Source: an uncultured Eubacteriales bacterium | GTDB taxonomy: Bacteria; Bacillota; Clostridia; Christensenellales; UBA1242 | Length of the DNA: 43,026 nucleotides | NCBI GenBank assembly: GCA_905203455.1 | Contig: CAJKVX010000001.1 | Span: forward strand, 1-43,026 | Direction of reading: 5' to 3' | Shown: positions 3,515 to 43,026 of the stretch, piece after piece | Position numbering within the stretch: the first letter of the stretch is position 1 | Layout of the letters: every line of letters begins with the position of its first letter | Position numbers and translations under genes: made by a program | Notes under the pieces: model-generated | Database searches by the model: none | What the model was told of the DNA's origin: nothing | Seen by the model: only the letters and a program-made list of their open reading frames with translations

Positions 3515-3530
3515 AGTGAAAGGAGAGATA

Positions 3531-5207: not shown

Positions 5208-5222
5208 CACAGGGAGGTAGTT

Positions 5223-19222: not shown

Positions 19223-19987
19223 ATGAAAATTTGTAGTATTAACATAAGACCATTAAAAGTGTTTACGGTGTTCTTGCTTGTTGTTGCAATGCTTACTTGT
19301 TTGCTTGTGTTTAGTAAATCTCAAACTGTATACTTTGGATACACAGCAAGAAAAGTTCCCATTTACAGTGTAAACACCACCGAAAAAAAGGTTGCATTAA
19401 CATTTGATGCTGCATGGGGAGCCGACAAAACCAGCAAAATTATAGAAATTTGCAAAGAAAACAACATTGAGGCAACTTTCTTTTTGGTTGGATTTTGGAT
19501 AGAGGCTTATCCTGAAAAGGTTAAAGAAATTTATGATGCGGGGTTTGACATTGGCACACACAGCAACACCCACCCGCAAATGAGTAAACTTTCAGCAGCT
19601 CAAATTCAGCAAGAATTACAATACTCTTGCAACTTGCTTACAACAATCACGGGGCAGAAGGTAAGATTTTTCCGTCCACCTTATGGCGATTATAACGACT
19701 TATTAATTACACAGGCAACAAGCCTTGGTTTGCAAACAATTCAATGGAGCGTTGACTCACTTGATTGGAAAGGGCTTTCTGCTAGTCAAATTTTAACAAG
19801 GGTTAACAGCGGAGTGCATGATGGGGCAATAATTCTGTTCCACAACAACAGCGACCACATTGTTGAGGCTTTGCCAACAATTATTTCAAACCTTAAAGAG
19901 CAAGGATATTCAATGGTTAAATTAAGTGATTTGGTTTATGAAAGTGACTACACAGTTGATAATAATGGCGTGCAATCAAAAAATTAA
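19223..19987 (+). CDS. polysaccharide deacetylase (NodB homology domain), PdaB-like, with N-terminal signal anchor
   Basis: AAAGGAG RBS. N-terminal hydrophobic segment VFTVFLLVVAMLTCLLVF. NodB motifs LTFDAAWG, ATFFLVG, GTHSNTHP, FFRPPYG, WSVDSLDW and ILFH. Confidence 0.85.
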   Translation: MKICSINIRPLKVFTVFLLVVAMLTCLLVFSKSQTVYFGYTARKVPIYSVNTTEKKVALTFDAAWGADKTSKIIEICKENNIEATFFLVGFWIEAYPEKVKEIYDAGFDIGTHSNTHPQMSKLSAAQIQQELQYSCNLLTTITGQKVRFFRPPYGDYNDLLITQATSLGLQTIQWSVDSLDWKGLSASQILTRVNSGVHDGAIILFHNNSDHIVEALPTIISNLKEQGYSMVKLSDLVYESDYTVDNNGVQSKN

Positions 19988-20000
19988 TTTGGAGGAAAAT

Positions 20001-20690
20001 ATGAGCAACAATTTTGAAAAGAACAATCAAGTAACAATTAAAGGAGAAGTTGTAAGCGAACCTGTGTTTAGCCACAGCGTGCTTGGGGAAGGGTTTTATA
20101 ACCTTACTGTTAAAGTTCCAAGGCTTTCAAACGAAGCAGATTTTATTCCCGTTACCATTAGCGAAAGACTTATGGAGAACATTAAACTTGGCTTAACTGT
20201 GGCATTTTGCGGGCAATTTAGAAGTTATAACAAACTTGTGGGGCAAAAAAGCAAACTTATGCTTACACTGTTTGTAAGGGCAAGGCTTGACCCTGAAACT
20301 TGTGATGAAATTAATTCAATAAGTTTAATTGGATATGTTTGCAAAGAGCCAATTTACCGCACAACTCCGTTTGGAAGAGAGATAAGCGATTTGTTAGTTG
20401 CGGTGAACAGGGCATATAATAAAAGTGATTATCTTCCTTGCATTGCGTGGGGCAGAAATGCAAGGTTTGCGTTAAACCTTAATGTTGGAGAAAAGATTGA
20501 GATATTAGGAAGAATTCAAAGCAGGGAATATCAAAAAAAACTAGAAAATGATGTTGTTGAAACAAGAATTGCTTATGAAATTTCAATTAACAGCATTGGC
20601 CTTGCAGAAATTGGTGACAGCGCCGAAGTTGAAACAAATCATGTTTACAACAATAGTCAAGGCACAAACTTTGGGGCAAATATTATTTAA
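20001..20690 (+). CDS. SSB-like OB-fold protein with two tandem OB modules
   Basis: The track start is GTG 19926, inside the upstream gene. ATG 20001 follows GGAGGA (19991-19996). Module 1 is NQVTIKGEVVSEPVFSHSVLGEGFYNLTVKVPRLS..DFIPVTISERL. Module 2 is ISLIGYVCKEPIYRTTPFGREISDLLVAVNRAYNKSDYLPCIAWGRNARF...GRIQSREYQKK. This pattern is one I recall from clostridial proteins annotated as single-stranded DNA-binding protein. Confidence 0.6.
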   Translation: MSNNFEKNNQVTIKGEVVSEPVFSHSVLGEGFYNLTVKVPRLSNEADFIPVTISERLMENIKLGLTVAFCGQFRSYNKLVGQKSKLMLTLFVRARLDPETCDEINSISLIGYVCKEPIYRTTPFGREISDLLVAVNRAYNKSDYLPCIAWGRNARFALNLNVGEKIEILGRIQSREYQKKLENDVVETRIAYEISINSIGLAEIGDSAEVETNHVYNNSQGTNFGANII

Positions 20691-22808: not shown

Positions 22809-25800
22809 TTAAAGTGGGGGAAGATGTGACCAATCGATATTTTCAACATATTGAGAAACAACCTGAGCGACATAAAGGGTTCCGGCGGCGAGACCAATAA
22901 CGACAGCCGCACCCCCAGCAAGTGTTGCTGCAGTAGAACCTCCTGGAACTAAAAATAGTGCTACACGCAAAACTGAGCTGATTGCTGAAGCTATGGCACC
23001 AATTGGTAGGATATGAACTGCAAGAATTAGAGCCACACCTGCAACAACAATTCCCACAACAATTCCTGCGGTTTGGTTATTTGTTGGCGCCGTACCTATC
23101 CAGAATGGAAGGGAGAATACATTCATTTTTTCACTGTCATCAATTGTTAAAATATTAATAATTTCAGATGATTCATCTATTTCTGCAGCGTTTGGATAAA
23201 CTGAACTTACAAGTTGATTAACATATGTTCCTTCATGATATCTCATTGCTCCTGCAAGAGCAGAGAAAAGATTCCTAATTTTTTGCCATGTGTCAGGAGT
23301 TTCAGAGTTATCAAGCATTTGAATGGTATTGTTAATGTTATTGTCATAATTGAAAAATAGTCTTCCAAAGCGTTCTGCTGATTGATAAGTAAGTGTTGCA
23401 TGACTGTAAGCCAAGTGTGCTTTTTCGCCAGTTTTACCATCTTCAGAAATCCATTGGTCAACATATTTTAAAGCAAGCTCTGTGAATGTTACAACACTAT
23501 CTCCGCTTTTAACATAGAACGGGTTAAATTCGTCACTTGATTTTGCTGTGTAAATAGCGCCACTAGTTTCGTCAGGTTTAATTGTCTCAGTTTCATTCCT
23601 TGGGTTTCTAAATAAGTCTAACAACTCGGTGTCTGTGATAACATCAACATTGCTGTTTCCATAAGCGTTTATGTAACCCTTATCAATTAGTTCAGCTAAT
23701 GTTTTACTTACTGTTCGCCCAGTATACCATTCAAAAACATTTATTTCAGTAATTTTAAAGGTGTTATATGGGTCAAATGAAGGGTCAATTAAACCGCGAG
23801 ATTTCAATTGATTAAAGATAGTTTCAATGTCGGTTGCTAATAGACCTGTGTTGTTTTTATTGAATATTTCATCATCAAAATAATCTAGAAGTTTTGCATT
23901 TTCATTATATGTGAAGCCTTCAATCTTGCAGAAGTTATTTAATAATAATAAGAAACTACTAATGATTGTGCTATAAGGATTATTACCACTAGCTGATAAA
24001 GATTGATTTAACTCCAATAATTTATTTGCGATGAATGCGCCGTTTTCAACAATGTAGTATTTGTAACTTACTATGTTTTTGATAACAAAGTCTAAGTCTG
24101 ACTCTGCTGTTTTTTCACTTGGTCTTGAAGTGAGTTCAACTTCGGTTTGACCGTCAGTTATTTTTGCAACAAGTGGGGTAGACTTTTTACCATACATTAA
24201 ATACAATGTGAAGTTGCAGTTTGAAAGTTGGAAGTCTGGGTCAGTAAACAGTTCGGTGTTTTCAAACATTCGGTTATAAAACCCTGAAATTAATCTTAAA
24301 TCGCTGTTTGAGTTTTGGTCAAAATAACTAATGTCACTAAGTTCATTTGTTTTTGTGAATTCTTGCATTTTTTCTAAATACTCTGAATCGTCAAAAGAGA
24401 ACGGAATTACGGTTTGGTCATCAGTTGGAGAATTAGGCATTATTTTAACACTTGGGAATCCAACATTTGCTTTTGCCGTTACCACAAAGTTAACTTTGTA
24501 ATTTGCTATAACTTCGCCATTTACTGGATTGCCGGATTCATCTAATTCAATAACATTGCCTTCTGCATCAATAGGGGTTGCAACAATGTTGTAAGACGAA
24601 AGGTCAACTTGACGCTTGTTGTTGAATGAAACTGAAATTAGCCCTGGCTTAATATAAGTTGCTGCTGCGCCCGTGTTGGTTGTGTCTCTTTCAAAATATG
24701 TTGAAATGTTTGATGGGTCAGAATAGTTATATAAAGTTATGTTTGTTTGTTTGAAGAAGTTTGATGTATTAACTTGTGCTGGTTCTGTTATTTCAACACC
24801 ATTTTCGTCATATACGCCAGTTGGAACTTGGTTAAAGACAATTTCAATTCTTTGGTTTTTATTGTTTGCATCAAGAACATAATTATTATTAATCCCTTTG
24901 TATTTTAAGTAATAAGTGTAAACATGGTTTCCTTCCTCATCAAGAACATAGTTTATAACAGTTTGCCCATTCACAATCGTGTAAGTTACTTTTGGTTCAG
25001 GGTCGAGTGATGCGGCAACATCAATTAAGCTAACTTTAATTTTAGATTTTTCATAAAGCATGCTATCTCCGGCGTTGTTGTTTAAAACATCAAGTTCATC
25101 TGCATTTTGGTCATAATAGGTTTCAATAAAACTTACATTTCCGTTTTCATCTTTAATTGAAACATAGTTGCTGTAATTAGTAATTCCATCACTTTGTTCA
25201 GCAGCAAGGTCAGTTTCTTTAATTACAAATGAAATAACATAACTCATTGGGGCAAAGTAGGCTCCAACAACAAGGTTTGAAGTAACATTGTTAATGTAAA
25301 GGTTGTTTCTTGCATTTTGTGGGTTTGTTAGAATAAGTTGCTCGTCGCTTTCAAAAGTGAGGAAAGTTGTGTCTTCACTTGCAAACAGGGCTTTCACTTC
25401 ATCAATTGTTTTTGTTGAGCCACCTTCCATAACAAACATATTATTTTGCCTGTAATAATTTGTTGCCCAACCAACAAGGTTAGAGAACGGATAATTCTGT
25501 GTTGTTATTATTGCTGGTTCACCATTGTAAGCAAAGGCAGTTGTGGTGCTTGCAAGTTTGCCACTTGAAGAGTTTTGGTCTTCATCAAGGTCAATGCCGT
25601 TGATTGATTGTCCTTCAAGAGCAGATGTGTCATTAGAGTTTTGGGCTAATAACTGTTCATAACTGTTATAAACTGTGTCGCTTAAATCTTTAAGCCTTAT
25701 ATCAATTTGGTGAAGCACTTTTTCATACAATGCAATAATTTGAGTGTCGCCACTTAAAGAAATGTTTGGAAGAGTGTAGGTGTATGTTTGTGTTGTTGAG

Positions 25801-28800
25801 TCATAAGCAATATCAACATCTTCCCTTGAAATAATTTTATATGAACTGTAAGTTGAAGTGTGAGCAAGTTGTTCGCCATCTGCAAAAAGGTTAATGCTGT
25901 TACGAGAAGCAGAGTTTATTATCATAAACCCTTTGAAGAACCAGTTTCCAATGTTTTGTCCGTTAACACTTGTTTGAACACTTATAACATTTCCTGCTTT
26001 TAGGTAAGACTGAATGTAACTTGTAAGTTCATAAGTGAAGTCAACATCACCATCTTCATAAACATAATTTTCAAGAGTTGTTCTGTCAGTGTTATTTGTT
26101 GCATCTTCGCTGTTTGCAAAATAACTTAAATTAACGCTAACATCATTTGCAAAACTTAGAAGAGAATTGTCAATTGCGTTGCCTTCTTGCTTTAAGTCAA
26201 AAAGTTTATCTAAAAATTCATCATAAAGAGTTTTATAGTGATTTAACACAAAGGTTGTTGTGTCATTTGAACTGGTTGTAAGAGCATCAATGTAACCAAC
26301 GCTTACGCTAACATTTGCAAGTTGCTCAATAATTGCACTTAAACCATTTTCACCAAACTCGCTTTCGCTTGAAGCAAAAATATCATTTGTTTGAGTGGTG
26401 TTGATGTAATAAGTGTTGTCAAACTCATCATCAGTGTTTGTTGTTTGTTCAAAATAGGTTAGGGCATCAAGAATTTGTTCAGGAATGCCTTGACTGATTA
26501 AATTATTATTTCTATCAATCAAGCCTAAGATTGTTGATGAATTTGTTTGGTAATAGAATGGAACATTTGAATCAGGTGTTGCAGGAACAATTGCAAAAGT
26601 GTGGCCATCATTTGTTACATTTGTGAAACTGCTTGAAAGATTGGTTGTTTTATCTGTTACGCCTAAAACTGCATTAATGTATTTAGTGTTGAAGGTGAAC
26701 ACAGGAATATAGTCTGCAAGGAAATAGATGTTATCTGTTGCAATGAAACTGTAATTTGAAATGCTGTCAAGGGTTGTTTCTGTGTCGCTTGAAGTTCGAT
26801 TAAACAAGGTTGTTAAGTTTGAATAAGCCCCTTGAGCAACAAATTGTTGCCACTCATCAATTGTTAAATCGCCAATAACATGGGTTGAATCAAGTGGAAA
26901 TTCTTTGCCAGCGATGTTAACATTTAAATAATCAGTGTTATCAATGGTTTTAATAATAGGAGAGGTAAGTGAGAATCCAATTGTGTTGAAGTTGTTATTG
27001 TCAGATGCGGTTATTGTTACAACATCACCTTCTTCAACCCAAATGTTAATAATTGCATCTCGGTAAACTGTGGTGTTTGTTTGAGCATCAATCTCAAATT
27101 TTGAACTGTTGTTAACAGTAACTGTTATAACTAATGAAGAAATATCTGTGGCTTCATTAATTGCGTAAGTATATTGAATGTTAATAAGTTTAACAGTGTT
27201 AAGGTTTAAAGTTTGGCTTTGATAAAAATCTTCAAGGAACACTGTTGCACTTGGTGGGTTAATACCGCCGTGATTGTAAGTGTAACCTTGTATGATTTTA
27301 TCATTTTGCTGAGTAAAGTTTTTAAACTTATAAACCTGCCCTTCATAAGTAAGGGTGTAAGGTTCACCAGAACCTTGTAATGAGGTTTGACTAAATGCTC
27401 TGTCAATAATATAGAAAGTGTCGCCAAGTTCACTTGATGCCACTGAGTATTTAAGGGTGTAAACTGTTCTGCCACCAACAATTGCTGTTCCAACCACAAG
27501 ATTTCTGCCAGAACTTAATGCAATTGTTTTGTTTGTGTTATTTGTGTCTTCAAGCACAGTTTGAAGTGAAACAATACTTCCTTCGGTGGCACCAACAAAG
27601 ATTTCACCACCCTCATAATCTGGGTTTAAAATCATGGTTCTTGTTTCTTCAACAAAAACTGCTTTAAGTTCAGTAATATCAGCATAGGTATTAGGGTTAA
27701 TGGTTGCATTTGAAGAAATAATGTTTCCATTTTGGTCTTGCCAGCCAGCAAAGGTGAAGTAACTGTTGCCAAACGCTTGAACAACAAGGTTATTGTTGTT
27801 ATAGAATTCAATAGTTACAGAGTTTAAAATATTATCAAGCACAGTTGTGGTCGTTGTTTGGTCTGAACTGCTTGTGTTTTCACTTAGCCTTGTAACATCA
27901 ATTCTGAACCCAGAAGAAGGGGTGTTAAACACAGAATTATAAGTGCCAAGAGTTATTCCGTTAGTTAAAGTGTTTAGTTGAGTGTAACGATTATCTGCTA
28001 ATAGTTTAAATGAAACTTCAACTTCTCTTAACTGAGCAAACATAGCAACAATGTCATAAATTGTGTTTTGCGTAATATCTAATCCAGATTGTGGAATAAC
28101 CTTATTGTTGTAATAATATCCCAAAAATTTAGCACCGTCAGTTTTATCACTTTCAATGTCATAAAGAGTCTTAATATCAGCAGGGGTTAAATAATCAGTG
28201 GTTTTAACATAGCCATTGGTTGTGCTATATTCAATTATGCTATCATCAGCATAAAGAAGGTAAGACTCATCAGTTATATCATCAATCAAATTAATGTTTG
28301 TAACCTTGTTGTAAACAAATGCAATTTTAACATCTTGCTCGCTTGTTATGTTTAATTTAAGGTTTTTAACATATGCTCTTCCTGCGGCATCTCTTTCGCT
28401 TAATTCATAACTTTCAATTTGGAAATTAACAGGGGCAGTTGGCAGAGTTGGCATTGATATTTGCCCAGCAGTGTTTGTGTAATCAATTCTGTATAAATAA
28501 TTGTCAATAACAATTCCTGAAATGCGGTAATCTTCATTAGCAGTAACATTAACTTGTTTTGTAACAGTTGTTGCACCTTCAGGGGTAACATCTTCAACTG
28601 TTGTGTTGCCAAGGTCTGTAATGTTTTCAACAGTATTATTTATTATAACATCAAAAGATTTTCTAAACACAGGGGTGATAGTAATTGCGCCATCAAGAAC
28701 TTTAAATGAGAAGTGCTTTAAAGTGATGATGAATGTTTTTGTTCTTGTGCCGTTATCCATAACTCTAATTACTTCATAATAGGCAAGATATGCGTTTTCA

Positions 28801-34800: not shown

Positions 34801-37800
34801 ACAGAAGTGTAAAACTCAAAATATCCAGTTCCAGAATTTCCAAGTTCATGAGCGTTTTCTTCACTGAAAATTGCGTTGCCGTTTGCATCATAACCATCAA
34901 TGGTTAATGATTGAATTGAGAATGAATACATTTTAATGGCAGTAAGGTTAATAATGTTAACTGAACCATCACCAACAGGGGCATGAGTGTATTTATTTAC
35001 ATAAGCATAAGTGTCGTAATATTCTTGGTCTTTATCACTGTTAGGGTCAATGGTGTCAGGCGCTTTATTTTCAACAAGTAAATATTGAAGGGTTGCAAAC
35101 AATCTGTCAATGTAATAAATTTCATTCACAGTTCCACCATTAAGAGTTGTTATAGCAAGGGCAGTAAAAGTGCCATCTTCTTCAACTTGAATTAGCCCTT
35201 CAAGTTCAAGAGCGGTGATATTTTCTTGAAGGTTTGCCTTTTGAGTTTCATTTAATGTGTTGCCATTTAGGGCATTGTAAAGTTTATTTAAATATTCTTG
35301 GCTTAACTTAACATTTCCTATATTTAAATTCTGCTCTGTGTTATGCAAAACATCACTATTAATATAATTAAGAAACTCAACAAATCTGTAACCACTGAAA
35401 CTGTTATAACCAGTTATGTTGTTATAAATTTCTCTGTAAGTTTCAGAGTTGAAATCAATAATGTTTGCAAGAAGAGGGTTCATTACATTAGTCATAAATG
35501 CTTCACGATTAATAAACCCAAAATTGAATTTATTGTTAGTTTTTGTAAATGTGAAATAATCTGCAAAGTTGAAATAAACAGAGTTTGTTACAGGTTGAGC
35601 AGTTTGTGAATTTAAACCTTCATAGGTTAATTCAACATCAAAATAATTTGAATAGGTGTTTAAATAGTTTCCTGTTAAAATGTCAAGACTTATGCTTATT
35701 TCACGGGTTGGGTGAACAATTAAATCAGCATATTCATTTTCAGGGTCACGGTTAAAGGTAACTTCAAAAACATAGTAAAGATAATCTGCTCTAACATCAA
35801 GCACATCTTGTGTGTTTTCAGTTAAACTTGGTTTAGTTGAGTTTGAAATTATGTATTCATCACTTGGGTAAATTATTGGTTGCAAGTTATATTCACTTGG
35901 AAGCCCCAATGTGTGAAGTTCAAGAGGAGAAGATGAAAGAGTTCTTACCACAATTATTGCGGTGGTGTTGTCATCAAAATAAAGATTTTGCAGAGCAAAT
36001 GATTCACCTTCACCAGATGGCATTGCCTGTTTTCCAACAGTTCCGTTATCTGCATTTAAGCCATTTGCATACAAAAAGTATTCCCATGCATTAATCTCAG
36101 AGTAATTATTTTTGTAATTATTTTTTGAAAGGGCAACATAGCCGTTATAAATTCCATTTTCGTCAACTGTGTTAATTAAAGAATTAGAAACAATGGTTGA
36201 AGCGAAATTGTTGTCATCTTCAACATCAAAAAGTTTAAACAGGTTAGGGTCAACATTTTGTGCAGATTTATCAAAGCCATATTCAATTGTGTTATCGTCA
36301 ATGGTAATAATTTGCCCATCAGCCCCAATTCTGTTGGCAAGGTTATTGTTTTGTTCGTTATAGTAATAAACTGCTTCAATTGAAACGCCGAATTCTTCTT
36401 CGCTGTCAGTTAAAATCATTGCTTGGTAAACTTCTCTAAACACTGCAACAAATTCAATGTTTGAATGAAGTGAAGAAATGATTAAGTTGTTGCCTTCAAC
36501 CTTAATGTTTCCAGTGCTGAACGAGGTGTAATAAAAGTCCCCAAATTTATAAACTTGAAGTCCGTTTAAGTAATAGAATGTGTCGCCAGAATTTTCATCA
36601 GTAATGCTAGTTATTGCATCAATATGAGGCATTTCTTTAACAATTAAAGTAGGGTTGCCATATTGGTCATATTCATAAATATATTTATCTTCAACCGCAA
36701 TGGTGTAAGTTGAATCATAAAAATATTTATCTTTTGCAGGAGAATAGAATACTTCAACATAGTTTGGTGAAACTTCTGTTTGAGTGTTAATGTAATACCC
36801 TCTAACTTTATATAAAAGTTTTTCAGGAACAGGTTCAGAGTAAACAAATGTGCCATCTTCATTTTCTGTTCTTGTGTAATAATAGTTACCGTTATAGAAA
36901 TATGCAGGGGTTATTTTGTCACTTTCGCTATAAAATCTTTGTTCTTCACCATAAAGGTCATAAAGAGACTGACCGTCAACTGTGTACCAGCCAAGAAGCC
37001 TGTAACCTTCATCTGGAATTGCTGAAAGCATAACTTCACTTTCACGGTCAATATAACTGTTTTTAAAAGATAGGGTGGTGTTTAATTTCCCATCTTCATC
37101 ATAAGCCATTTCCCCAGCAACAAGGTCGTTAGTTGAGTTATGGTAATAGTCGCCATATTCGCTTGAAATAATGCCTTCCAAAATTTCAACAATGGTGATT
37201 TCTGAAACTGTTAATTCTGCAATAGGGCTGGCTTCTTCAAAATTAATAATGCCGTTTTCTATATTAAATATTGCGTAAGGGTCTTCAACATTATAAAGTT
37301 TATCTTCAAAGTTGAATAAGCTTATAACTTCTTCTTGGTTTGAACCTGAAATTGTTGGTTGAGCAAAAATGCAAGAATACATAAATCCAACGCCAGCAGT
37401 TATTTCTTTGTTTGAAGAAGTGTCAGTTGTTAAATTAGGGTCATCATAAATAAGGTAATACCTTAAATTTTCATAAGTCAGTGCGAACAATTTATTTGCA
37501 ACATTTCCACTTGCGGCATCTTCACTTGTGCCAATGGTAACGCCAGAATATCTAAACCTGCCTTCATCTTCGTCATAAAATTCAGCCCAATAAGGCCCAA
37601 AGGGGGTGTTTTCAAATTGTGGAAGATAGAACACCTGAGTGAGAGAGGTATTAATATTACCATCTTCATCAAAATAAACATATGGGGTGGCGGTGATGTT
37701 TTTGTAGTAATAACCAAGTTTGCCGCCAACCTCAGTTTGAAGATATTCAATTGTGTAAATCTCTTGAAGAGTGGTGCCATCAAGGTTAACAGAAGCACCA

Positions 37801-40800
37801 TCTTTATAATAAACAACAATTGAACCACCTTGGTTTTGTGGACCATTTTCAACTTCAGTTGCAACTGAAACCTCAAAAACTCTTTGGTAAACAGGAAGAA
37901 TAACATAGTGCCCAACATTTTCAGGGTTAAACACCATGGTTGCAGAAAACCTTTCGTTGCCTAAACTTTCGGTTACTGCTTGGTCGTAATAAAGCACGCC
38001 TGAGTTGTATCTTGAATAAACTCTCCATTCAAGAAAACGATAGTAAACTTCATCGGTAAAGTTTATCATTGGGTCTGCAATTAAAACTAAGCATTCTCTG
38101 CCTTTTAAGAAATAAGTTTCATTTGTGTCGTATGAATCAATAACAGGAATTGATGTTTGAGGGGTGTAACCAACATAGTCAGCCCCAGTGCCATAAATCA
38201 TGCTGTTAATGTATGAAACGCTGGTTCTGTAAGCCGAAGTTGTGCCTGCAATTATAACTTGGTCAAAATCATAATCATCAGCAATGTTATGAACATCACC
38301 CAAAACAAGGCCTTCAAGTTCAGAGCAAACATCATTAATGTCAAGTTCACCTGAGTTGAAAATTATTGTTCCAGTTAGCCTATCTTCGCTGTAACCATGA
38401 ATGTCAAAATAACCAACATCTTTAATGTATTTCTTGCTTGTTCTCCAAGCGTAGCACTCACTTTCAGTAAGTGGGCGATAGTAATAACCACCAATTGCAA
38501 TTGAGTTAAGTTCAACCGTTGTTCTAACATAAACAGGGTTTGTGTAAACTCCGTTTGCGTCAAATGCGTCAGTCCAATAAATAATGCCGTCATCTGCAAC
38601 AAAAATTTCATTGACTCTTAAAGTTAAGCCATCTTCATAATCTGGGTCAACAACATAGTCACCATTTGAGGTGAGATTTAATTTGAAAGCGTTAATGTGG
38701 CTAAGAGTTGTGCGGTCAAGAACATAATATATATTATTAATATAATCTTGTGAATCAATATTATCTAATGTGTCTTTAAATGAATAGGTTGAAAAATCAA
38801 GCACAAGGTTAGATGAACTGTTTTCAAGTTTGTCTGCCATAACCTCTGCAAAGAACACGCTTTTAATGTCAACTGCAATGTTAACTTGGGCATATTCGTT
38901 TGCCTTGTGCCTGACTGACAAAATTAGAACAGGGTTAGGGTAAGGTGGACCAGAAAGCAGGCTTGAACCAATAAACCCATCTTTTTTAGCAGAATCTGTG
39001 CTGTAATCAATGTCAAAATAGAAACTGTTAATTGGGTCAAAGATGTAAGCGTTGTCATATTCAAGCGCACAAGAGAATGATGGATAAATTATAGGTTCAT
39101 TAGGGTCGCTTGTTGGAACAAATTTTCCCCAAACCATAATCTGAGTTTTTTGGTTGGTTGTTGGGTCATGAACAAAGGCTTCTCTTTCAATAACATAAAC
39201 ATAACCTTCATTAGGTTCATAAGTTAAATCATGCCTTGTATTGCTTGAGTCAATGTAATAGTAACTATAAGTGTTTTCTTGGCTATCAGAAGAAATGATT
39301 GCTGCGTTTTCATTGTTATCAACCAAACTTGCGGCAACAAATGCATCTGTGCCATTTTCATCTCCAATTTTAATTGATGGGAAAATGAAATATTGTGAAA
39401 AGTCAGTTATTACTTGATTGTCAATTATCCAATTTGTGCCATCATAGGTTGCAACATAAGTGGTTAACTCATTATCAAGTTTAACTGCCTGGTAACTTAC
39501 GGTGAAAATGAAACTAAACCCTGAGTCGATAAATGAATAAGTTCCGCTGTTTCTAAAATTGGTTCCCTCTTGTGGTTCTATTTCATCTTTAGAATCTGAA
39601 AACTGAACAATAGAGCCATTCCTATCATAAAGAATGCCACCATTATCAAAATTGAAACTGAAGTTAAGCGTGTTGGTTACATCAGTTAACTCTCCGTCAA
39701 TTCTTCTTTGGGCAACAAATTCAAAAGTTGTTGGGTTGAAAGTAATTCTGTAATTAATTCCGTCAATTGTTATGCTTTTAAATAATTCAACAGATGTTAC
39801 TTCTTCCTGAATATCATATTCAAGGTTATACTCACTTCCAGGTGTTCCATTAGGGTCGTCTTCAGTGAAATAGAACCAACCGCCACTTTGTCCCATGGCG
39901 ATGTCGTTATATTGCCTTACATGCACTTCGCAAGGGGTTACTGGTTCAACATAATAGTAATAATTATTTACAATTTTTTGACCAAGAAGATTATAGAATG
40001 TTTGGTAGCGAGATTGGTTTTGCAAAATATCTCTGCCAAGAACAATTCCACTGTAATTTGTGTTAGTGAAATTATAGAACCATTGAGTTGAATCATCTGC
40101 AAGTTGTCTTCCAATTGGGCTTGTGTAATAATGGGTGGTGGTTCCACTTTGTGTTCTGCTTTTAATATCATAATAAAAGTAAACATCTTGTGTTTTTTCA
40201 CCTTCGCCGTCATTATAAGTGTAAGTTAGATTTGATTTATAAGCAGTTGCAATTGAAGAGATGTCGCCATTTGTTACATAGTCATAATAACAAGGGGTAA
40301 CAGTTAAAGAGTCAAGAGTTCTTTCAAAATAATAAACTGTTGTTGAATATTGAAGACTTGAAGAATTGTTGTTAAGCAAAATTCCGCTAGTGTAATTGGT
40401 GAGGTAAGTTGCAAGAAAATCTGTTGCTTGTTCAAGCGTTGTAATTATTGTTGGTGGGTTTGCAACTAAACCTTGGTTTGAATTTGTTGCAGAAAAATCT
40501 TCAAGCACCCTGTGTTGTCTTAAACGATAAGTTGTTGAGTTACCTTGGGTTGAAACAACAATGCTTTCAAAGGTTGCAACAGAGCCGTCTTGATTGTAAG
40601 AATAGTTGCCGTAATAATAACTGTTATATGTTAAAACTCCATTTTCATAAGTTGAATCTCTAAAATTATACACATAAAGTTGACCATTATAAAGCAGATA
40701 ATTTCCTGTTCCATCAGCAGTAACAGTGCCAGCAAGAGATTGTTGTGTTGTTTTGTAATATGTATTGGTTGTTGCGTTAAAGTAAATATAGTTTGCTGGG

Positions 40801-43010
40801 TTTAAGGTGCAAGTGCAATTGCTTTCTGTGTGGGCAGGGTTGGTGCATAATTTGTAATTAATTTGGGTTGAAATTTGTGGTGTTTCAACATTATAACTAA
40901 CAAGCATATGATTGCTTGGAACAATTATTGAAAGAATAATGTTGGTTGTTACATACCCATGAATATCTTCCTTGGTTGTTACAGATTTTATAATTTCATA
41001 GGCAACATCACTGCTAACACTTCCAACTTGGTTATCATCATCAACTTGGCTAATTGTCACTTCAATGTTTGAAGACTCTGCATATTCAGTGCCAATAACG
41101 CCACAAAGAGTTTTGTCCCATTGCCCAACAAACAAACTTCTTGTTATTGTTTCTGCCAAAAGCACAGAACTCATTGTTCCGTTATGGAAGGTGTAACTGG
41201 TTGAAACGCCACTTGTTTCATCATTATTTGTTGAAACTTTATCAAAAATCAAACACATGTTGTGTTCAAGCCCAGTAACTGTGAAGGTTGAGCCATCAAT
41301 GTTAATTGAAATTTCAATTGTTCTTCCATCATCAGTGGTGAAGTTAAAAGTTGTTGATGTTTGAGTTTTTCTAATAGCATCAAAACTTTTTAGTTTGAAA
41401 ACATCGCTTGACGCAAAAATATAACCATTCGCATCAAAATCAACTTCATAAATAGAAATGGTGTATCCTGTTAAATAATGATTGCTGTTTCCATTAAAAA
41501 ATTCGTCACCAGCAAAAACGGTTCCACTTTGAGTGAAATTTTTAACCTTGCTGTAATTAGCATAGAATGTGTAGCCTGAAATATGGCTTGTTGCAACAAC
41601 ATTTATGGTTGAAGAAAGGTTTGATGGGGTGGTGTAATCAGTTGTTTTATCAATGTTAAGCAGGTCAAAGAAAAGATTATCTTTGTTATCAAGATTTAAT
41701 TTTTGACCATAAGCCACAAAGCCAAATTGCGGTGTGGTATCATCAGAGTAATAGTGGTTAACAATAAAAGTTAAACTGTTTGCTGATTGCGTTAATGCTG
41801 GATTTTGGTCTGACGCAAAATTAAAGAAGTTTGAAAGTTGACAAGGAAGAGTTCCGTTTAAAACAGAGTTTGAAGTTGCCTCTGTGTTAGTTGTCCAACT
41901 TGAAAGGGCAAAATCACTGTTTTCAACTTGCTTTCTTGTAACTTTAACAACTCTTCCTTCAGGGAAATAGCCTTCAAGATAGGTGATTTTTGCGTCATTT
42001 TCATTTGCAGTTATTGTGGTTTTAATTCTGTCAAAATAGTAAACATCTCGGTCATATTCAAGGTAGCCTACTTGTGAAATATCATCAGCTGAATTTGGGC
42101 TGTAAACAGAAAATGCCAGCCTTGATGCTTGGTAGGTTATGGTTGAAGAATAAGCACTGTCGCCACGGTTTGAGCCTTCTTTTGCAAGTGCTTTAACCTT
42201 AATTGTTCTGCTTATGCTGCTGCCTTCAAGTTGAGGGTTAAACACCACCATGTATTCAGGGAAAGGAATGCCAGTTTCAGCACTATTTATGTTGCGGTTT
42301 GTTTCAGTTTCAACAATTTTGATGTATTCACTGCTTAAAGGTTGGGTTTCACCAAGATAGGTAAAATAGAAAGCATTAGTGTTTAAAACATACATTTGCC
42401 TAGTTTGGTCAAACATAACAGTTGACTCATTTGGATAAACATTCACTGCAAAAGTTAATGCCTTGCCATCAACAACAACCTCATAGTTAGGGAATTCAAT
42501 GTTTGGTGAAAAGAAACGGTAAAGGGTAATGTTTCCATCTGTCCATGAGTTTGTTGCAGAGTTGTACCTAACGGCAGATAAATCACCTTTGTAAATATAT
42601 TCAGCAAGTTTTGCTTTATCTTCATCAGTTAAATTTCTTTTTGAAAGAATTTCGGTTGGGTCAGTAGTGTAAAAATTAACGCCAAGATATTGCTCATCCG
42701 CTTCTGGCGAATAAACATTTTTTGCATAGTATGAGAAGTTCCAAGAAAAAGAGCCCGAAAGTTCAGGGTCAAAATAATCCTCATCATTCTCATTTTTTTG
42801 AGAGTAGTTATAAACCAGTTGAGGAGTAAGGATTCTTAAATAGCCATTAGCATCAAAGGTTGCGTTTGAAGTGTTTTGTGGAATTTCAGGGTCGCAACCC
42901 ACAAAGCAGAAAAGTGATGCAAAAAGTAGAACAAACAGGCTAAAAATTTTAGCAATAGAAGACTTTTTATTAGTTTTAGATTTAGCGTTAACAATCACAG
43001 AATTTCCCAT
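22809..43010 (-). CDS. giant (6,733 aa) surface lipoprotein containing InlB B-repeat / Listeria-Bacteroides repeats, with C-terminal membrane hairpin
   Basis: Uninterrupted frame of 6,734 codons. AAGGA (complement of 43020-43024) lies 9 nt upstream of the ATG. Lipoprotein-type signal with Cys39. Many GY-x-F-x-GW ... [IL]-x-A-x-[FY] modules. The longest alternative-frame ORF in the track across this span is 146 aa. Confidence 0.93.
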   Translation of the reverse strand: MGNSVIVNAKSKTNKKSSIAKIFSLFVLLFASLFCFVGCDPEIPQNTSNATFDANGYLRILTPQLVYNYSQKNENDEDYFDPELSGSFSWNFSYYAKNVYSPEADEQYLGVNFYTTDPTEILSKRNLTDEDKAKLAEYIYKGDLSAVRYNSATNSWTDGNITLYRFFSPNIEFPNYEVVVDGKALTFAVNVYPNESTVMFDQTRQMYVLNTNAFYFTYLGETQPLSSEYIKIVETETNRNINSAETGIPFPEYMVVFNPQLEGSSISRTIKVKALAKEGSNRGDSAYSSTITYQASRLAFSVYSPNSADDISQVGYLEYDRDVYYFDRIKTTITANENDAKITYLEGYFPEGRVVKVTRKQVENSDFALSSWTTNTEATSNSVLNGTLPCQLSNFFNFASDQNPALTQSANSLTFIVNHYYSDDTTPQFGFVAYGQKLNLDNKDNLFFDLLNIDKTTDYTTPSNLSSTINVVATSHISGYTFYANYSKVKNFTQSGTVFAGDEFFNGNSNHYLTGYTISIYEVDFDANGYIFASSDVFKLKSFDAIRKTQTSTTFNFTTDDGRTIEISINIDGSTFTVTGLEHNMCLIFDKVSTNNDETSGVSTSYTFHNGTMSSVLLAETITRSLFVGQWDKTLCGVIGTEYAESSNIEVTISQVDDDNQVGSVSSDVAYEIIKSVTTKEDIHGYVTTNIILSIIVPSNHMLVSYNVETPQISTQINYKLCTNPAHTESNCTCTLNPANYIYFNATTNTYYKTTQQSLAGTVTADGTGNYLLYNGQLYVYNFRDSTYENGVLTYNSYYYGNYSYNQDGSVATFESIVVSTQGNSTTYRLRQHRVLEDFSATNSNQGLVANPPTIITTLEQATDFLATYLTNYTSGILLNNNSSSLQYSTTVYYFERTLDSLTVTPCYYDYVTNGDISSIATAYKSNLTYTYNDGEGEKTQDVYFYYDIKSRTQSGTTTHYYTSPIGRQLADDSTQWFYNFTNTNYSGIVLGRDILQNQSRYQTFYNLLGQKIVNNYYYYVEPVTPCEVHVRQYNDIAMGQSGGWFYFTEDDPNGTPGSEYNLEYDIQEEVTSVELFKSITIDGINYRITFNPTTFEFVAQRRIDGELTDVTNTLNFSFNFDNGGILYDRNGSIVQFSDSKDEIEPQEGTNFRNSGTYSFIDSGFSFIFTVSYQAVKLDNELTTYVATYDGTNWIIDNQVITDFSQYFIFPSIKIGDENGTDAFVAASLVDNNENAAIISSDSQENTYSYYYIDSSNTRHDLTYEPNEGYVYVIEREAFVHDPTTNQKTQIMVWGKFVPTSDPNEPIIYPSFSCALEYDNAYIFDPINSFYFDIDYSTDSAKKDGFIGSSLLSGPPYPNPVLILSVRHKANEYAQVNIAVDIKSVFFAEVMADKLENSSSNLVLDFSTYSFKDTLDNIDSQDYINNIYYVLDRTTLSHINAFKLNLTSNGDYVVDPDYEDGLTLRVNEIFVADDGIIYWTDAFDANGVYTNPVYVRTTVELNSIAIGGYYYRPLTESECYAWRTSKKYIKDVGYFDIHGYSEDRLTGTIIFNSGELDINDVCSELEGLVLGDVHNIADDYDFDQVIIAGTTSAYRTSVSYINSMIYGTGADYVGYTPQTSIPVIDSYDTNETYFLKGRECLVLIADPMINFTDEVYYRFLEWRVYSRYNSGVLYYDQAVTESLGNERFSATMVFNPENVGHYVILPVYQRVFEVSVATEVENGPQNQGGSIVVYYKDGASVNLDGTTLQEIYTIEYLQTEVGGKLGYYYKNITATPYVYFDEDGNINTSLTQVFYLPQFENTPFGPYWAEFYDEDEGRFRYSGVTIGTSEDAASGNVANKLFALTYENLRYYLIYDDPNLTTDTSSNKEITAGVGFMYSCIFAQPTISGSNQEEVISLFNFEDKLYNVEDPYAIFNIENGIINFEEASPIAELTVSEITIVEILEGIISSEYGDYYHNSTNDLVAGEMAYDEDGKLNTTLSFKNSYIDRESEVMLSAIPDEGYRLLGWYTVDGQSLYDLYGEEQRFYSESDKITPAYFYNGNYYYTRTENEDGTFVYSEPVPEKLLYKVRGYYINTQTEVSPNYVEVFYSPAKDKYFYDSTYTIAVEDKYIYEYDQYGNPTLIVKEMPHIDAITSITDENSGDTFYYLNGLQVYKFGDFYYTSFSTGNIKVEGNNLIISSLHSNIEFVAVFREVYQAMILTDSEEEFGVSIEAVYYYNEQNNNLANRIGADGQIITIDDNTIEYGFDKSAQNVDPNLFKLFDVEDDNNFASTIVSNSLINTVDENGIYNGYVALSKNNYKNNYSEINAWEYFLYANGLNADNGTVGKQAMPSGEGESFALQNLYFDDNTTAIIVVRTLSSSPLELHTLGLPSEYNLQPIIYPSDEYIISNSTKPSLTENTQDVLDVRADYLYYVFEVTFNRDPENEYADLIVHPTREISISLDILTGNYLNTYSNYFDVELTYEGLNSQTAQPVTNSVYFNFADYFTFTKTNNKFNFGFINREAFMTNVMNPLLANIIDFNSETYREIYNNITGYNSFSGYRFVEFLNYINSDVLHNTEQNLNIGNVKLSQEYLNKLYNALNGNTLNETQKANLQENITALELEGLIQVEEDGTFTALAITTLNGGTVNEIYYIDRLFATLQYLLVENKAPDTIDPNSDKDQEYYDTYAYVNKYTHAPVGDGSVNIINLTAIKMYSFSIQSLTIDGYDANGNAIFSEENAHELGNSGTGYFEFYTSVGTNNRTYMGSISPEENFAGIYYNGALTDTPTGIQFTNHYVDTDPDYQKDKNLPSYVYKDFLLAENTLLLIEGLAEQSTNVGYQFMGWYQQKRITSIYNRFFDLEGNKLNVVNENTNYAFGTDNAGNTIVVYAKDSAVGAYHAGDPVPAPSRQDVMTNWLYFIDPETLELYRQDGVLVESTNYQYVEWSSLELVSTTYKYPYVALSNADTVITALFKRVVELEYSFNPIEMSVTSSTSTDSLGNPLTYTVYQNGVIIGENITDKQEAYAVIQDNYVSTNTYEIRVKGNFYIDATPTLTISPSGGYRLDGVYEVLTDELGQQSSTQIDEFDDAGNTVLSFSNTNSLLDTNIAEPSENSVSTYDSVNLAGIVYTTAVINRLFNTENVEQSSKHITFKTQRVTMLYSQIENYYTFDADTGLTTAKNYDFILYYLTGADSTTILTPDQVNDSADGIFFDTRIFKNTLSFGQDTPSADDDFTVSLDITNLLTKNFNRNETLPAYAMNEGFLDEWIFNCFLSGYLSCEYYANNYSVAELTDIILNSTEYQDVLSNFAKTSSNTYIYLEIANNNLIFYAYLDNTFTDENTLNIITSITNNETKDDAIDHWYINAQTPSSISGADTGSDLNENVTFPTTQNITFEKPTNTLDPDVNAQNAQYNDEFKLSKDNLVYHLRAIIEDENKQTISITLQDNVNSAPQSLADLGVSGNTNQDGTISGTDNAFDDLIEFTFTGIKYASQDGDLNIDTSEAADNTNANGTISTKYHTGRYGTNTNFVLTISEQLLVIDNTITYPNGTLTQADVYAFVGWVVNGVIVSTDLSLDTNEGGTIEARFVKIAQVTLVNGDDGTQINMEYLEIESQAYLDNSMQVESQVFGFYPEGDYYYALAGYPVHFKVYPDYGYVLESVSHTNPNFGVDPNAPEFITAPIYYGVDTYPYFEIEFMVDSIVKINIREGFTLTIDQILFNDFYQTTQGSKFTGYTLYNIWKLEDDAWVARDNFQVFAQGSRIRLEFNPNDQPYSIIGWYINNELVSSTDTVEFELTENTVVELRIVKNIYLNIKASTSYYSNSSALNQIQQGITVTFEDGSTFNGTTDITGNQITVKAGEQLEIGFSGENLGRTFLGWYYMIENETQTPKLLSTNYNFIFTINADNPYINNNSVTIVAVFAFTKQITIEKTLEGNEPQGEDVQNIDVIVNYTNGYGNEVSTNLGSSTSITINALLGTDVVVEAIVSEDNQERYFFEGFWQNGNIVTYENIYTLNTNSLNTTQTTLRANFVEGNLVTVTRRLNDDPYTGDTISLNVKYGNTPATLTGKTLTGEDEYVELGFKSDNTNNLVLSYLIDSEDPNYNNYRFIGWFIDGKPLSYYQEINGKDNYIEDRTILTIVNPSQNLPENANLDNDKKNTLIEARFAELASITLSRNIDGNSNDSNLSNFTVTAYYNTLTQNNVSVTNLVLSNTSGNSATGSSMAYKYTSLALTASSYAGYEFIGFRVNCVDANGNTISSEFIRNEDGTINTNDVVYYYLDNSNEAQITSYVIEACYSKQYTINTIGTIMGQSSANVSFGAENPTTISNFFATGENLTQTSTITSSCDGYSFVGYFDAFGNQLGTDQTLTISNADLIRLATGDQIFIEARYTRTVTITVEAYNQAGELLSTQPYTLPYGVDATITAPTGFTAWALPNPDGSNRLVAYYSTDHSLRILPLENKTYYALCGGAVDSFSNYLVPHAVVSTSSNGLIADGSTYTQELETYNFISVTYEPNSSNQQIASLSINIDYALEQGYMFVGWVAGAKYLIGDGYHYLPLSNNLTIDAANYPYNDIFAVFTRVNLIELTLSGDSHVGSYIANLNNATTLSGIRTFSVTTSVDGKTTTIKLLSGTATANISAISGYNLESNANSTAISTQRIVKNITIQFYQNGDEQRVAVLDDDEQKITTTLSNIDPDFINSQGGAITENSLPTTVITVNNSNYGSIVITNQNGDTLYTQNGNNPVYVNELTFDNLFVTSNPNTNENAYLAYYEVIRVMDNGTRTKTFIITLKHFSFKVLDGAITITPVFRKSFDVIINNTVENITDLGNTTVEDVTPEGATTVTKQVNVTANEDYRISGIVIDNYLYRIDYTNTAGQISMPTLPTAPVNFQIESYELSERDAAGRAYVKNLKLNITSEQDVKIAFVYNKVTNINLIDDITDESYLLYADDSIIEYSTTNGYVKTTDYLTPADIKTLYDIESDKTDGAKFLGYYYNNKVIPQSGLDITQNTIYDIVAMFAQLREVEVSFKLLADNRYTQLNTLTNGITLGTYNSVFNTPSSGFRIDVTRLSENTSSSDQTTTTTVLDNILNSVTIEFYNNNNLVVQAFGNSYFTFAGWQDQNGNIISSNATINPNTYADITELKAVFVEETRTMILNPDYEGGEIFVGATEGSIVSLQTVLEDTNNTNKTIALSSGRNLVVGTAIVGGRTVYTLKYSVASSELGDTFYIIDRAFSQTSLQGSGEPYTLTYEGQVYKFKNFTQQNDKIIQGYTYNHGGINPPSATVFLEDFYQSQTLNLNTVKLINIQYTYAINEATDISSLVITVTVNNSSKFEIDAQTNTTVYRDAIINIWVEEGDVVTITASDNNNFNTIGFSLTSPIIKTIDNTDYLNVNIAGKEFPLDSTHVIGDLTIDEWQQFVAQGAYSNLTTLFNRTSSDTETTLDSISNYSFIATDNIYFLADYIPVFTFNTKYINAVLGVTDKTTNLSSSFTNVTNDGHTFAIVPATPDSNVPFYYQTNSSTILGLIDRNNNLISQGIPEQILDALTYFEQTTNTDDEFDNTYYINTTQTNDIFASSESEFGENGLSAIIEQLANVSVSVGYIDALTTSSNDTTTFVLNHYKTLYDEFLDKLFDLKQEGNAIDNSLLSFANDVSVNLSYFANSEDATNNTDRTTLENYVYEDGDVDFTYELTSYIQSYLKAGNVISVQTSVNGQNIGNWFFKGFMIINSASRNSINLFADGEQLAHTSTYSSYKIISREDVDIAYDSTTQTYTYTLPNISLSGDTQIIALYEKVLHQIDIRLKDLSDTVYNSYEQLLAQNSNDTSALEGQSINGIDLDEDQNSSSGKLASTTTAFAYNGEPAIITTQNYPFSNLVGWATNYYRQNNMFVMEGGSTKTIDEVKALFASEDTTFLTFESDEQLILTNPQNARNNLYINNVTSNLVVGAYFAPMSYVISFVIKETDLAAEQSDGITNYSNYVSIKDENGNVSFIETYYDQNADELDVLNNNAGDSMLYEKSKIKVSLIDVAASLDPEPKVTYTIVNGQTVINYVLDEEGNHVYTYYLKYKGINNNYVLDANNKNQRIEIVFNQVPTGVYDENGVEITEPAQVNTSNFFKQTNITLYNYSDPSNISTYFERDTTNTGAAATYIKPGLISVSFNNKRQVDLSSYNIVATPIDAEGNVIELDESGNPVNGEVIANYKVNFVVTAKANVGFPSVKIMPNSPTDDQTVIPFSFDDSEYLEKMQEFTKTNELSDISYFDQNSNSDLRLISGFYNRMFENTELFTDPDFQLSNCNFTLYLMYGKKSTPLVAKITDGQTEVELTSRPSEKTAESDLDFVIKNIVSYKYYIVENGAFIANKLLELNQSLSASGNNPYSTIISSFLLLLNNFCKIEGFTYNENAKLLDYFDDEIFNKNNTGLLATDIETIFNQLKSRGLIDPSFDPYNTFKITEINVFEWYTGRTVSKTLAELIDKGYINAYGNSNVDVITDTELLDLFRNPRNETETIKPDETSGAIYTAKSSDEFNPFYVKSGDSVVTFTELALKYVDQWISEDGKTGEKAHLAYSHATLTYQSAERFGRLFFNYDNNINNTIQMLDNSETPDTWQKIRNLFSALAGAMRYHEGTYVNQLVSSVYPNAAEIDESSEIINILTIDDSEKMNVFSLPFWIGTAPTNNQTAGIVVGIVVAGVALILAVHILPIGAIASAISSVLRVALFLVPGGSTAATLAGGAAVVIGLAAGTLYVAQVVSQYVENIDWSHLPPL
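22812..23069 (-). other. C-terminal Gly/Ala-rich transmembrane segments of the giant protein (aa 6648-6733)
   Basis: AGIVVGIVVAGVALILAVHILPIGAIASAI, SSVLRVALFLVPGG, STAATLAGGAAVVIGLAAGTLYVAQVV. These are two to three hydrophobic small-xxx-small helices. The DNA here is locally GC-richer because of Gly/Ala codons. Confidence 0.65.
27636..32573 (-). repeat. densest block of divergent protein-level InlB-B/Flg_new-like repeat modules within the giant CDS (approx aa 3480-5125)
   Basis: G-W codon pairs, frame-checked: 32394-32399, 31749-31754, 31449-31454, 30756-30761, 29466-29471 and 27741-27746. G-F/G-Y variants have their G codon at 31092-31094, 30357-30359, 30030-30032 and 28119-28121. Each sits in a Y/F-x-F/L/I-x-G-W/F/Y context. 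Each is followed 25-45 aa later by I/L-x-A-x-F/Y (IEARF, VAVFA, LRANF, IEARFA, IEACY, IEARY, FAVFT, KAVFV). Block boundaries are approximate. The repeats are divergent at the DNA level. Confidence 0.6.
42894..43010 (-). other. lipoprotein signal peptide of the giant protein (aa 1-39)
   Basis: MGNSVIVNAKSKTNKKSSIAK (basic n-region), IFSLFVLLFASLFCFVG (h-region), then C39 in an F-V-G-C lipobox-like context followed by DPE. Confidence 0.6.
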
Positions 43011-43026
43011 TTTGTTGTGTCCTTTG

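Follow-up and report, generated by a model that had tools for sequence, protein, structure and literature searches.

The locus described here raises the question of what kind of protein is encoded by a single open reading frame (ORF) of 20,202 nucleotides (nt), the giant ORF, which takes up 47% of a 43,026-nt stretch of DNA from an uncultured Eubacteriales bacterium (contig CAJKVX010000001.1). This whole stretch is referred to as the window. Giant surface proteins shape the encounters of gut bacteria with their host, with phages and with each other; to our knowledge, hardly any of those in uncultured Clostridia have been investigated. A previous annotation made from the nucleotide letters, hereafter the sequence-only reading, described the product as an envelope protein of no assignable function, and proposed that it is a giant cell-surface fibre, adhesin or sheath component. 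On balance, we lean towards a doubly anchored giant envelope protein that would form a fast-evolving adhesive or protective surface fibre or coat, together with a partner protein that carries an SH3 domain and a transmembrane (TM) helix (the SH3/TM protein).

Results

The giant ORF is a genuine conserved gene

The giant ORF was retrieved on the complementary strand by ORF listing and translation (Table 1), as a single frame with the start, stop and length given in the sequence-only reading. Its share of the window and the length of the longest alternative ORF within its span (146 aa, 37478..37918) also reproduce the figures of that reading. The remaining five frames of the span contain 324-953 stops each, and at the lowest stop rate among these frames a run of 6,733 codons without a stop would arise by chance with a probability of ~1e-144. 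The Shine-Dalgarno site that had been proposed was found upstream of the start codon, and the start context in a relative (L002; related loci and proteins are referred to by L and P labels) is the same as that in the window, AAAAGGAC...ATGGG. As counted from the translation, the protein is indeed rich in Asn, Thr, Tyr and Ser and poor in Cys, Met, His and Arg (T 10.3, N 9.8, S 8.2, Y 7.3, C 0.34, M 0.76, H 0.76 and R 2.1%).

The same gene, intact and with the same neighbours, is found in two other assemblies of this species, namely an independent 912-kb contig from ENA (L016, 6,744 aa) and a 917-kb contig from NCBI (L018, 6,756 aa). Between strains, the ratio of nonsynonymous to synonymous substitution rates (dN/dS) in the C-terminal half of the gene is 0.08-0.40. 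Open and colinear orthologues exist in at least eight species. In seven species (L002, L003, L004, L006, L007, L009 and L010) the frame is open over >5,100 aa, a lower bound that was counted to the end of the retrieved DNA, and one homologue of 6,928 aa (P0012) is 42% identical to the giant protein and colinear with it from the first to the last residue. Collapsed repeats, which the sequence-only reading had named as a possible source of error, are of no concern for this ORF because the gene lacks long DNA repeats; that is, none exceeds 39 nt, and there is one trivial tandem repeat. The frame is broken in three related assemblies, through the loss of one T from a TTT run (L001), at 1.8x coverage (L005), and by a stop (L008). 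These three copies fit sequencing error or sporadic decay.

In a scan of one genome per species, relatives were detected in 12 genomes of uncultured Clostridia from the guts of human, goat, sheep and rabbit, and the gene order is shared in relatives. The homologues and synteny by which the sequence-only reading had proposed to check its claim thus exist. An exhaustive HMMER search with the last 1,200 aa against 1.84 billion representative proteins matched seven proteins, of which five are strong matches to clear family members or fragments and two are weak (E 7e-5 and 2.5e-4). A word-indexed protein search gave only P0001 for the N-terminal 2,000 aa and no match for the C-terminal 1,633 aa. 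This near-empty result is not evidence of rarity, because the index may be limited or lack giant proteins, and the genome scan found 12 species. The giant protein family is restricted to a clade of uncultured gut Clostridia and is previously undescribed; no description of the family or of its locus was found in a literature search.

Over window positions 22000-43000, the + strand has a slightly positive GC skew throughout (0.0-0.14), though the giant gene is on the - strand. Either the giant gene is encoded by the lagging strand, or the usual coding-strand skew is overridden by its codon usage for Thr, Ser, Asn and Tyr.

Both ends of the giant protein carry predicted membrane anchors

The lipoprotein-type signal noted in the sequence-only reading is present at the N-terminus (Table 1). 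Cys39 and its flanking residues are invariant in P0001, the FVGC motif is found in P0012, and the Cys is also kept in L022; position -3 of the lipobox is F or M in this family, rather than L. At the C-terminus, where that reading had placed a membrane anchor, the hydrophobic character was confirmed, but three helices are predicted and not one. These hydrophobic stretches are kept in P0011-P0015, and the protein ends in a short conserved N-I/V-D-W tail. Because the signal, the lipobox Cys and the C-terminal helices are conserved among homologues that are only 25-57% identical, the predicted location of the giant protein in the envelope is well supported. No cytoplasmic-type domain was found in the protein, and its pI of 4.2 and its richness in Asn, Thr, Ser and Tyr fit such a location. 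If the signal is used, everything between the two termini would lie outside the membrane, with both ends tethered. The envelope location claimed earlier is thereby upheld; a fibre, adhesin or sheath is what we infer from it, as discussed below.

A motif scan of the whole protein agrees with the absences reported earlier. Neither the LPxTG-type sortase motifs (LP.T[GAS] or NPQTN) nor HExxH occur anywhere in it, nor do the repeats-in-toxin (RTX) motifs GG.G.D and D.D.DG, the phosphopantetheine-attachment (P-pant) motif or a Walker A motif. Instead of the RTX motifs of type I secretion, the protein has an N-terminal Sec-type signal. Domains of non-ribosomal peptide synthetases and polyketide synthases gave no match in Pfam or NCBIfam.

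Most of the giant protein is unique, non-repetitive sequence

About 79% of the giant protein has no match in Pfam, NCBIfam, PHROGs or the PDB, with single sequences as well as with family profiles. Searches of both halves against the PDB with phmmer returned nothing, as did profiles of aa 1241-2060 and of the C-terminus; tiles of two orthologues gave only one near-threshold match in Pfam, to Flg_new_2. The earlier statement that the protein has no assignable function holds after searches of these four databases and of the 1.84 billion proteins, and of the segments that had been said to match nothing nameable (aa 40-2000 and 5130-6640), aa 40-1941 and 5131-6325 came out empty in the family searches. 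The most conserved core of the family lies within the N-terminal unique region, at aa ~1295-1770 (window 37701-39128), and distant homologues are 36-42% identical over aa 1251-1800. Almost no internal paralogy was detected with jackhmmer on 200-aa tiles, outside the modules described below. Judging from this, the giant protein consists of many unique segments in succession, each conserved between orthologues, and is not a repeat-expanded adhesin.

The recognisable part consists of a ~100-aa module with the motif GY.F.GW...A.F. A hidden Markov model (HMM), built by iteration starting from GY.F.GW, identified 12 copies with confidence and a further one marginally, which together make up ~21% of the length of the protein. 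The copies are 9-25% identical to the reference copy, and one orthologous pair reaches 42%. No copy attains the Pfam gathering score, either in the window protein or in its orthologues: the best match in the former is to Flg_new_2, with 16.6 bits against a cut-off of 23.6 bits, with Flg_new also sub-threshold, and the best among the latter is again to Flg_new_2, in L003, with 23.3 against 23.6 bits, at the site orthologous to copy 1. In NCBIfam, no family scored above threshold for any of the tiles, TIGR02543 included. When a profile of 24 copies was compared with the PDB, the top match was the InlB B repeat (2y5p_A, E 0.0019, 66/74 residues), and five of the top seven matches were internalin B. 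These scores lend weak, marginal support to a relationship with the InlB B repeat that would be distant but real. The resemblance to Listeria-Bacteroides or InlB B repeats at which the sequence-only reading had hinted therefore survives as a weak profile relationship, and covers ~21% of the protein rather than the whole of aa 2000-5130; the Pfam and TIGRFAM scan it had suggested yields sub-threshold Flg_new and Flg_new_2 matches and none above threshold. It had also suggested structure prediction, and two models were built, one of them of a repeat module. This AlphaFold2 model (aa 4265-4375) has a predicted local distance difference test score (pLDDT) of 61.6, with only the last 65 residues at 70-86, and Foldseek found no match to it in the PDB with E <1.

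The giant gene evolves rapidly at a fixed locus

The gene of the SH3/TM partner begins 12 nt after the giant stop codon, in an apparent operon, and is also found downstream of the giant gene in L016, L018 and L061. Beyond it, on the opposite strand, are genes for a protein like single-stranded DNA-binding protein (SSB), a polysaccharide deacetylase (PDA), a 655-aa acidic membrane protein, a gyrA/gyrB-type topoisomerase and murG. In L061, a giant-bearing locus from another species, the order giant-SH3-SSB-PDA-655aa-gyrA-gyrB is identical to that in the window. The proteins encoded there are conserved to very different degrees, that is, 35-41% for the giant protein and 35% for the SH3/TM protein, against 75% for SSB, 83% for PDA, 76% for GyrA and 91% for GyrB. 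These identities indicate that the giant gene evolves much faster than its neighbours at a fixed locus. The 655-aa protein is only 37% identical in L061, where neighbours are at 75-91%, and appears to be another fast-evolving envelope protein.

Within this species, one part of the giant gene differs sharply between strains that are otherwise ~99% identical. The segment encoding the last ~410 aa, or cassette, shows 49-73% nt identity to L016 and L018, while the flanks on both sides are 97-100% identical. The boundaries are sharp and lie at ~24,030 and at the stop codon at 22,809. The three cassette alleles are homologous over their full length, TM helices included, with ~50% aa identity. The alignments thus indicate that strains replace a membrane-proximal module of the giant protein. 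The downstream SH3 gene is 98-99% identical in L016 despite the different cassette, i.e., the two do not co-vary.

A second variable patch lies in the SH3 gene itself (window 22200-22600, aa ~100-250 of its product), with 78-89% nt identity to L018 compared with 96-100% in the rest of the gene. P0008 and P0010 match 35-37 of 50 aa in this patch, which does not co-vary with the giant cassette.

In relatives, the giant gene stands beside a phage-like gene block

The window ends 16 nt upstream of the giant ATG, and the evidence for what follows comes from relatives only. In 10/10 relatives with a visible upstream flank, the giant gene is divergent from a sigma-like regulator that heads a phage-like block, with genes for a large terminase subunit (TerL), a portal protein, a major capsid protein (MCP) and tail components (Table 1). 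The block-bearing loci are L001, L002, L006, L007, L009-L011, L013-L015 and L022-L025. Divergence of the giant N-terminus tracks that of the MCP (rho 0.86), and no lineage with the giant gene and without the block has been seen so far.

The same sigma-terminase arrangement occurs in giant-less relatives, represented by IMG/VR fragments whose capsids are more distant. In these, only a protein of 615-864 aa fills the slot of the giant gene. It combines a signal with an NHL-like region, SH3-like domains and a TM helix, and the C-terminal 236 residues of the SH3/TM partner are homologous to it (hhalign 96.4%, E 1e-9). In giant-less relatives the block is immediately flanked by homologues of SSB (52-63% identity) and PDA (52%), and in L041, L044 and L045 the locus adjoins PDA-SSB. 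This arrangement indicates that the block predates the giant gene, and the SH3/TM protein looks like an older companion of the block than the giant protein is. Because the block keeps to the same PDA-SSB-gyrAB locus in giant-less relatives too, it appears to be vertically inherited.

At the other end of the block, host genes begin ~4 kb past the MCP gene in L045 and L047; in one relative these are a serA-like gene and genes for an aminotransferase and RNase J, and in the other, genes for McrBC and LexA. Neither an integrase nor a replication module is seen in the visible parts of the block, and 13 related loci contain no tRNA genes that could serve as attachment sites. Among GenBank phages the giant protein has no match, and the closest capsids are 25-27% identical; a scan of viral contigs for the far side of the block gave nothing beyond three short contigs already found. 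In the relatives, which alone show this region, head-tail structural genes are retained intact at one chromosomal position in different species. Overall, the block resembles a phage relic of the gene transfer agent (GTA) or PBSX type that is ancient, inherited vertically and possibly under SOS control, rather than a mobile prophage.

The region between the sigma-like and giant genes contains several conserved elements. An extended -10 promoter-like element, TTGTTTTGCttaATCGACAAnATATGaTAAAAT, precedes the giant ATG by 60-90 nt (L001-L011). The motif TTGTCGA/TTGTCAA is repeated 2-3 times beside the divergent sigma start, and TTGTCGA-type motifs are common to both sides. A palindrome resembling a Cheo or LexA box, CGAAC-N4-GTT[CT], has 8/10 of its occurrences in 297 kb of related loci at this intergenic position (Table 1), and is adjoined by a conserved hairpin and then a T-run; a LexA gene also stands beside the block in L045.

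Two further candidates were rejected. An invertible promoter between the sigma-like and giant genes was considered, and its inverted repeats are better read as motifs shared by divergent promoters; a promoter common to the giant gene and to the SH3/TM gene of giant-less relatives was reduced to a shared generic extended -10.

The window and the contigs of L003, L004 and L012 stop 16-363 nt upstream of the giant ATG, and on the far side of the block the IMG/VR contigs L020, L024 and L025 end ~110-370 nt after a match to the same 683-aa gene. Breaks that arose in assembly or binning at the edges of the block could account for these shared ends.

Table 1. Positions of the features described in the text, in the window unless a related locus is named
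Feature	Position	Strand	Description
Giant ORF	22809..43010	-	ATG-to-TAA, 6,733 aa, 754 kDa, pI 4.2; sole stop is the terminal TAA
Shine-Dalgarno-like AAAGGA	43020..43025	-	9 nt before the giant ATG
Lipoprotein-type signal peptide, aa 1-39	42894..43010	-	K-rich n-region, hydrophobic core, lipobox F-V-G-C39
N-terminal unique region, aa 40-1941	37188..42893	-	No family match
B-repeat-like module copy 1, aa 1942-2049	36864..37187	-	Iterated HMM; Pfam Flg_new_2 E 0.0077
B-repeat-like module copy 2, aa 2765-2870	34401..34718	-	Iterated HMM
Ten more B-repeat-like modules and unassigned linkers, aa 3477-5130	27621..32582	-	Iterated HMM
C-terminal unique region, aa 5131-6325	24036..27620	-	No family match; 97-100% identical to other strains
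Allelic C-terminal cassette, aa ~6326-6733	22809..24035	-	Mixed alpha/beta domain, LPFW motif, three hydrophobic helices, N-I/V-D-W tail
Three predicted TM helices, aa 6648-6719	22854..23069	-	Small-residue-rich; hydropathy scan
SH3/TM partner gene, 619 aa	20937..22796	-	Signal peptide, repeat/propeller-like region, SH3_3, C-terminal TM helix
SSB-family gene	19926-20690	+	~100-aa N-terminal extension; SSB domain at aa 129-221 of the longest ORF
655-aa protein	17002-18969	+	Acidic low-complexity N-terminal half, one TM helix, beta-rich C-terminal part, no Pfam match
K/E/D-rich 281-aa protein	7490-8335	+	No family match
MurF-type Mur ligase	3501-5207	+	Mur_ligase_M and Mur_ligase_C from aa 228
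Phage-like block	Related loci		Order: sigma-like regulator; 339-aa gene (opposite strand); TerL; P22-type portal; scaffold-sized gene; MCP (phrog_14242); two small genes; virion structural protein; tail protein
LexA-box-like palindrome sites	L001 ~9786, L002 ~9810, L007 ~2164, L009 ~9792, L010 ~9784, L011 ~4313, L023 ~1652, L024 ~202		Sequence pattern

Discussion

A proposed doubly anchored surface protein

In the interpretation that we prefer, the giant protein would be exported through Sec by means of its N-terminal signal and would probably be lipid-modified at Cys39. The three C-terminal helices would then stop transfer, such that both ends stay in the cytoplasmic membrane, and ~6,600 acidic, beta-rich residues, including the 12-13 InlB-B-repeat-type modules, may form a long looped fibre or coat outside the membrane. 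The SH3/TM protein probably ties this assembly to the peptidoglycan. The pair would occupy an accessory slot of a fixed phage-like cluster, between PDA-SSB and the sigma-like regulator. Rapid evolution and C-terminal swapping would be the pattern of an exposed surface pressed by phages, phage-like particles or the host, and the giant protein would most likely serve as an adhesive or protective surface layer.

Several points weigh against this interpretation. Expression, lipidation, surface exposure and a ligand of the giant protein would all have to be read from sequence alone, and its linkage to the block in this species is deduced from relatives. A membrane-proximal site is an odd place for cassette replacement if selection acts on the exposed surface. 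As ~79% of the protein has no recognisable module, it could harbour a hidden enzymatic or other activity. Lastly, both models are poor, such that a beta-grasp fold of the repeat modules is at most putative; the second model, of the C-terminal 834 aa from an alignment of six sequences, has a pLDDT of 45.6.

The giant protein can be compared with several known kinds of protein. Clostridia in mammalian gut metagenomes encode proteins of 10,000-30,000 aa with Listeria-Bacteroides repeats (bioRxiv 10.1101/2023.11.21.568195), and the InlB B repeat has been described (PMC8900821). Like these proteins (Flg_new PF09479, Flg_new_2 PF18998, 2y5p), the giant protein comes from a gut organism of Gram-positive type, is secreted, very large, acidic and rich in N/T/S, and has 12-13 modules that share the GY.F.GW...A.F motif and whose profile matches the InlB B repeat first in the PDB. 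In contrast to those proteins, its modules are sub-threshold and cover ~21% of its length, the rest being unique and non-repetitive, and its predicted anchors are a lipobox and C-terminal helices, not LPXTG, GW or S-layer-homology modules.

With the giant fibrous adhesins Ebh of Staphylococcus, SiiE, LapA and MpIBP, the giant protein has in common the size class (>5,000 aa) and an acidic, extracellular, rod-like design of many small domains. Ebh also has a C-terminal membrane-spanning segment. These adhesins are built of closely similar tandem repeats, and the Gram-negative ones use type I secretion with RTX motifs. The giant protein differs from all of them, since it has no RTX motif, almost no internal paralogy and an N-terminal lipoprotein signal, and shares no sequence similarity with any of them. 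In the way it would work, it resembles the giant fibrous surface proteins of Gram-positive bacteria. Four features appear to set it apart from known kinds, namely a sequence without repetition that is for the most part unrecognisable, predicted anchors at both ends, a C-terminal module that strains can swap, and a constant position in a locus of phage origin.

Alternative explanations

The strongest alternative, which we regard as possible but clearly less probable, is that the giant protein does not just adjoin the phage-like element but serves it as an accessory. It would mask surface receptors (superinfection exclusion), or act as a receptor or immunity determinant for particles from the adjacent cluster, and its expression would be coordinated with the cluster. 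The divergent placement of the giant gene next to the sigma-like regulator of the cluster, in 10/10 relatives, speaks for such a role, as do the homology of the SH3/TM partner to the gene in the same slot of giant-less relatives, the TTGTCGA-type motifs on both sides together with the LexA-box-like palindrome between the two genes, and the correlated divergence of giant protein and MCP; rapid evolution and an allelic cassette would also fit an arms race. Adjacency at a vertically inherited locus gives the same correlation without any functional link, however, and PHROGs gave no significant match for the giant protein or for its partner. Known exclusion lipoproteins are small, and 754 kDa is very large for such a task. 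The regulatory motifs are sequence patterns only, and the LexA-like box may belong to either promoter.

A more far-reaching proposal, to which we assign a low probability, is that this clade carries a vertically inherited, probably SOS-controlled and phage-derived element of the GTA/PBSX type that forms particles, with the giant and SH3/TM proteins as its dedicated surface module. This module would be a receptor, or a determinant of self-exclusion or release, and the cassette would set strain specificity. The block in relatives resembles GTAs (RcGTA) and PBSX-type elements in its compact TerL-portal-MCP-tail cluster with a sigma-like regulator beside it, in its fixed locus across lineages so distant that their SSB shares only 52-63% identity, in the LexA-box-like site, and in the host genes ~4 kb past the MCP. 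It differs from them in that the cluster is known here from genes alone and is seen only in part in giant-bearing genomes, and in that IMG/VR lists its fragments as viral. We know of no GTA or PBSX locus that carries a 20-kb surface-protein gene.

A very unlikely alternative is a contact-dependent polymorphic toxin, of the CdiA, Rhs or LXG type, in which a giant stalk would present a variable, membrane-inserting C-terminal toxin. In such systems (CdiA-CT, Rhs, LXG), too, the exported protein is very large and strains differ in its last few hundred residues beyond a sharply defined boundary, which is matched by the size of the giant protein and by its C-terminal ~410 aa. Some membrane-inserting toxins have helices rich in small residues, and so do the C-termini of the window protein and of P0012. 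Unlike in those systems, the alleles here are homologous to one another throughout and not unrelated toxin domains, and the near-identical SH3 gene in L016 leaves no candidate for a cognate immunity gene. A classical toxin-immunity pair is excluded on these two grounds. In addition, the giant protein has no VENN, PxxxxDPxGL or LXG demarcation motif, Pfam and NCBIfam scans gave no toxin family, and the terminal hydrophobic helices of a Sec substrate would be expected to stay in the membrane of the producer.

That the ORF is an assembly artefact or a decaying pseudogene, i.e., a product of collapsed repeats, a chimera or a frame open by chance, is hardly credible: the three broken frames and the several contigs that end just upstream of the gene would fit it, but the lack of long DNA repeats, the intact copies on two independent contigs, the colinear orthologues and a dN/dS <0.4 argue against it.

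Should the giant protein and the element be functionally linked, a phage relic and a host surface structure would be partners in a way that is new for the human and ruminant gut. Without such a link, the giant gene would still clearly mark a fast-evolving surface under selection, and its product would be well suited to structure prediction from deeper alignments.

Neighbouring genes in the window

Further from the giant gene, the window contains the host genes ddl, murF and tsaE/tsaB/rimI. With host genes such as these around it, the locus is part of a walled, Clostridia-type chromosome. No Rfam family and no convincing terminator were found in the window. The longest ORF of the SSB-family gene overlaps the end of the PDA gene, and other assemblies call a product of 229 aa; the gene always flanks the locus that comprises the giant, SH3 and phage-like genes. 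The gene for the K/E/D-rich 281-aa protein lies upstream of one for a DUF1538 membrane protein and of two small ORFs (122 and 119 aa). The MurF-type ligase has a ~220-aa N-terminal extension with several hydrophobic segments, which is unusual for a cytoplasmic ligase.

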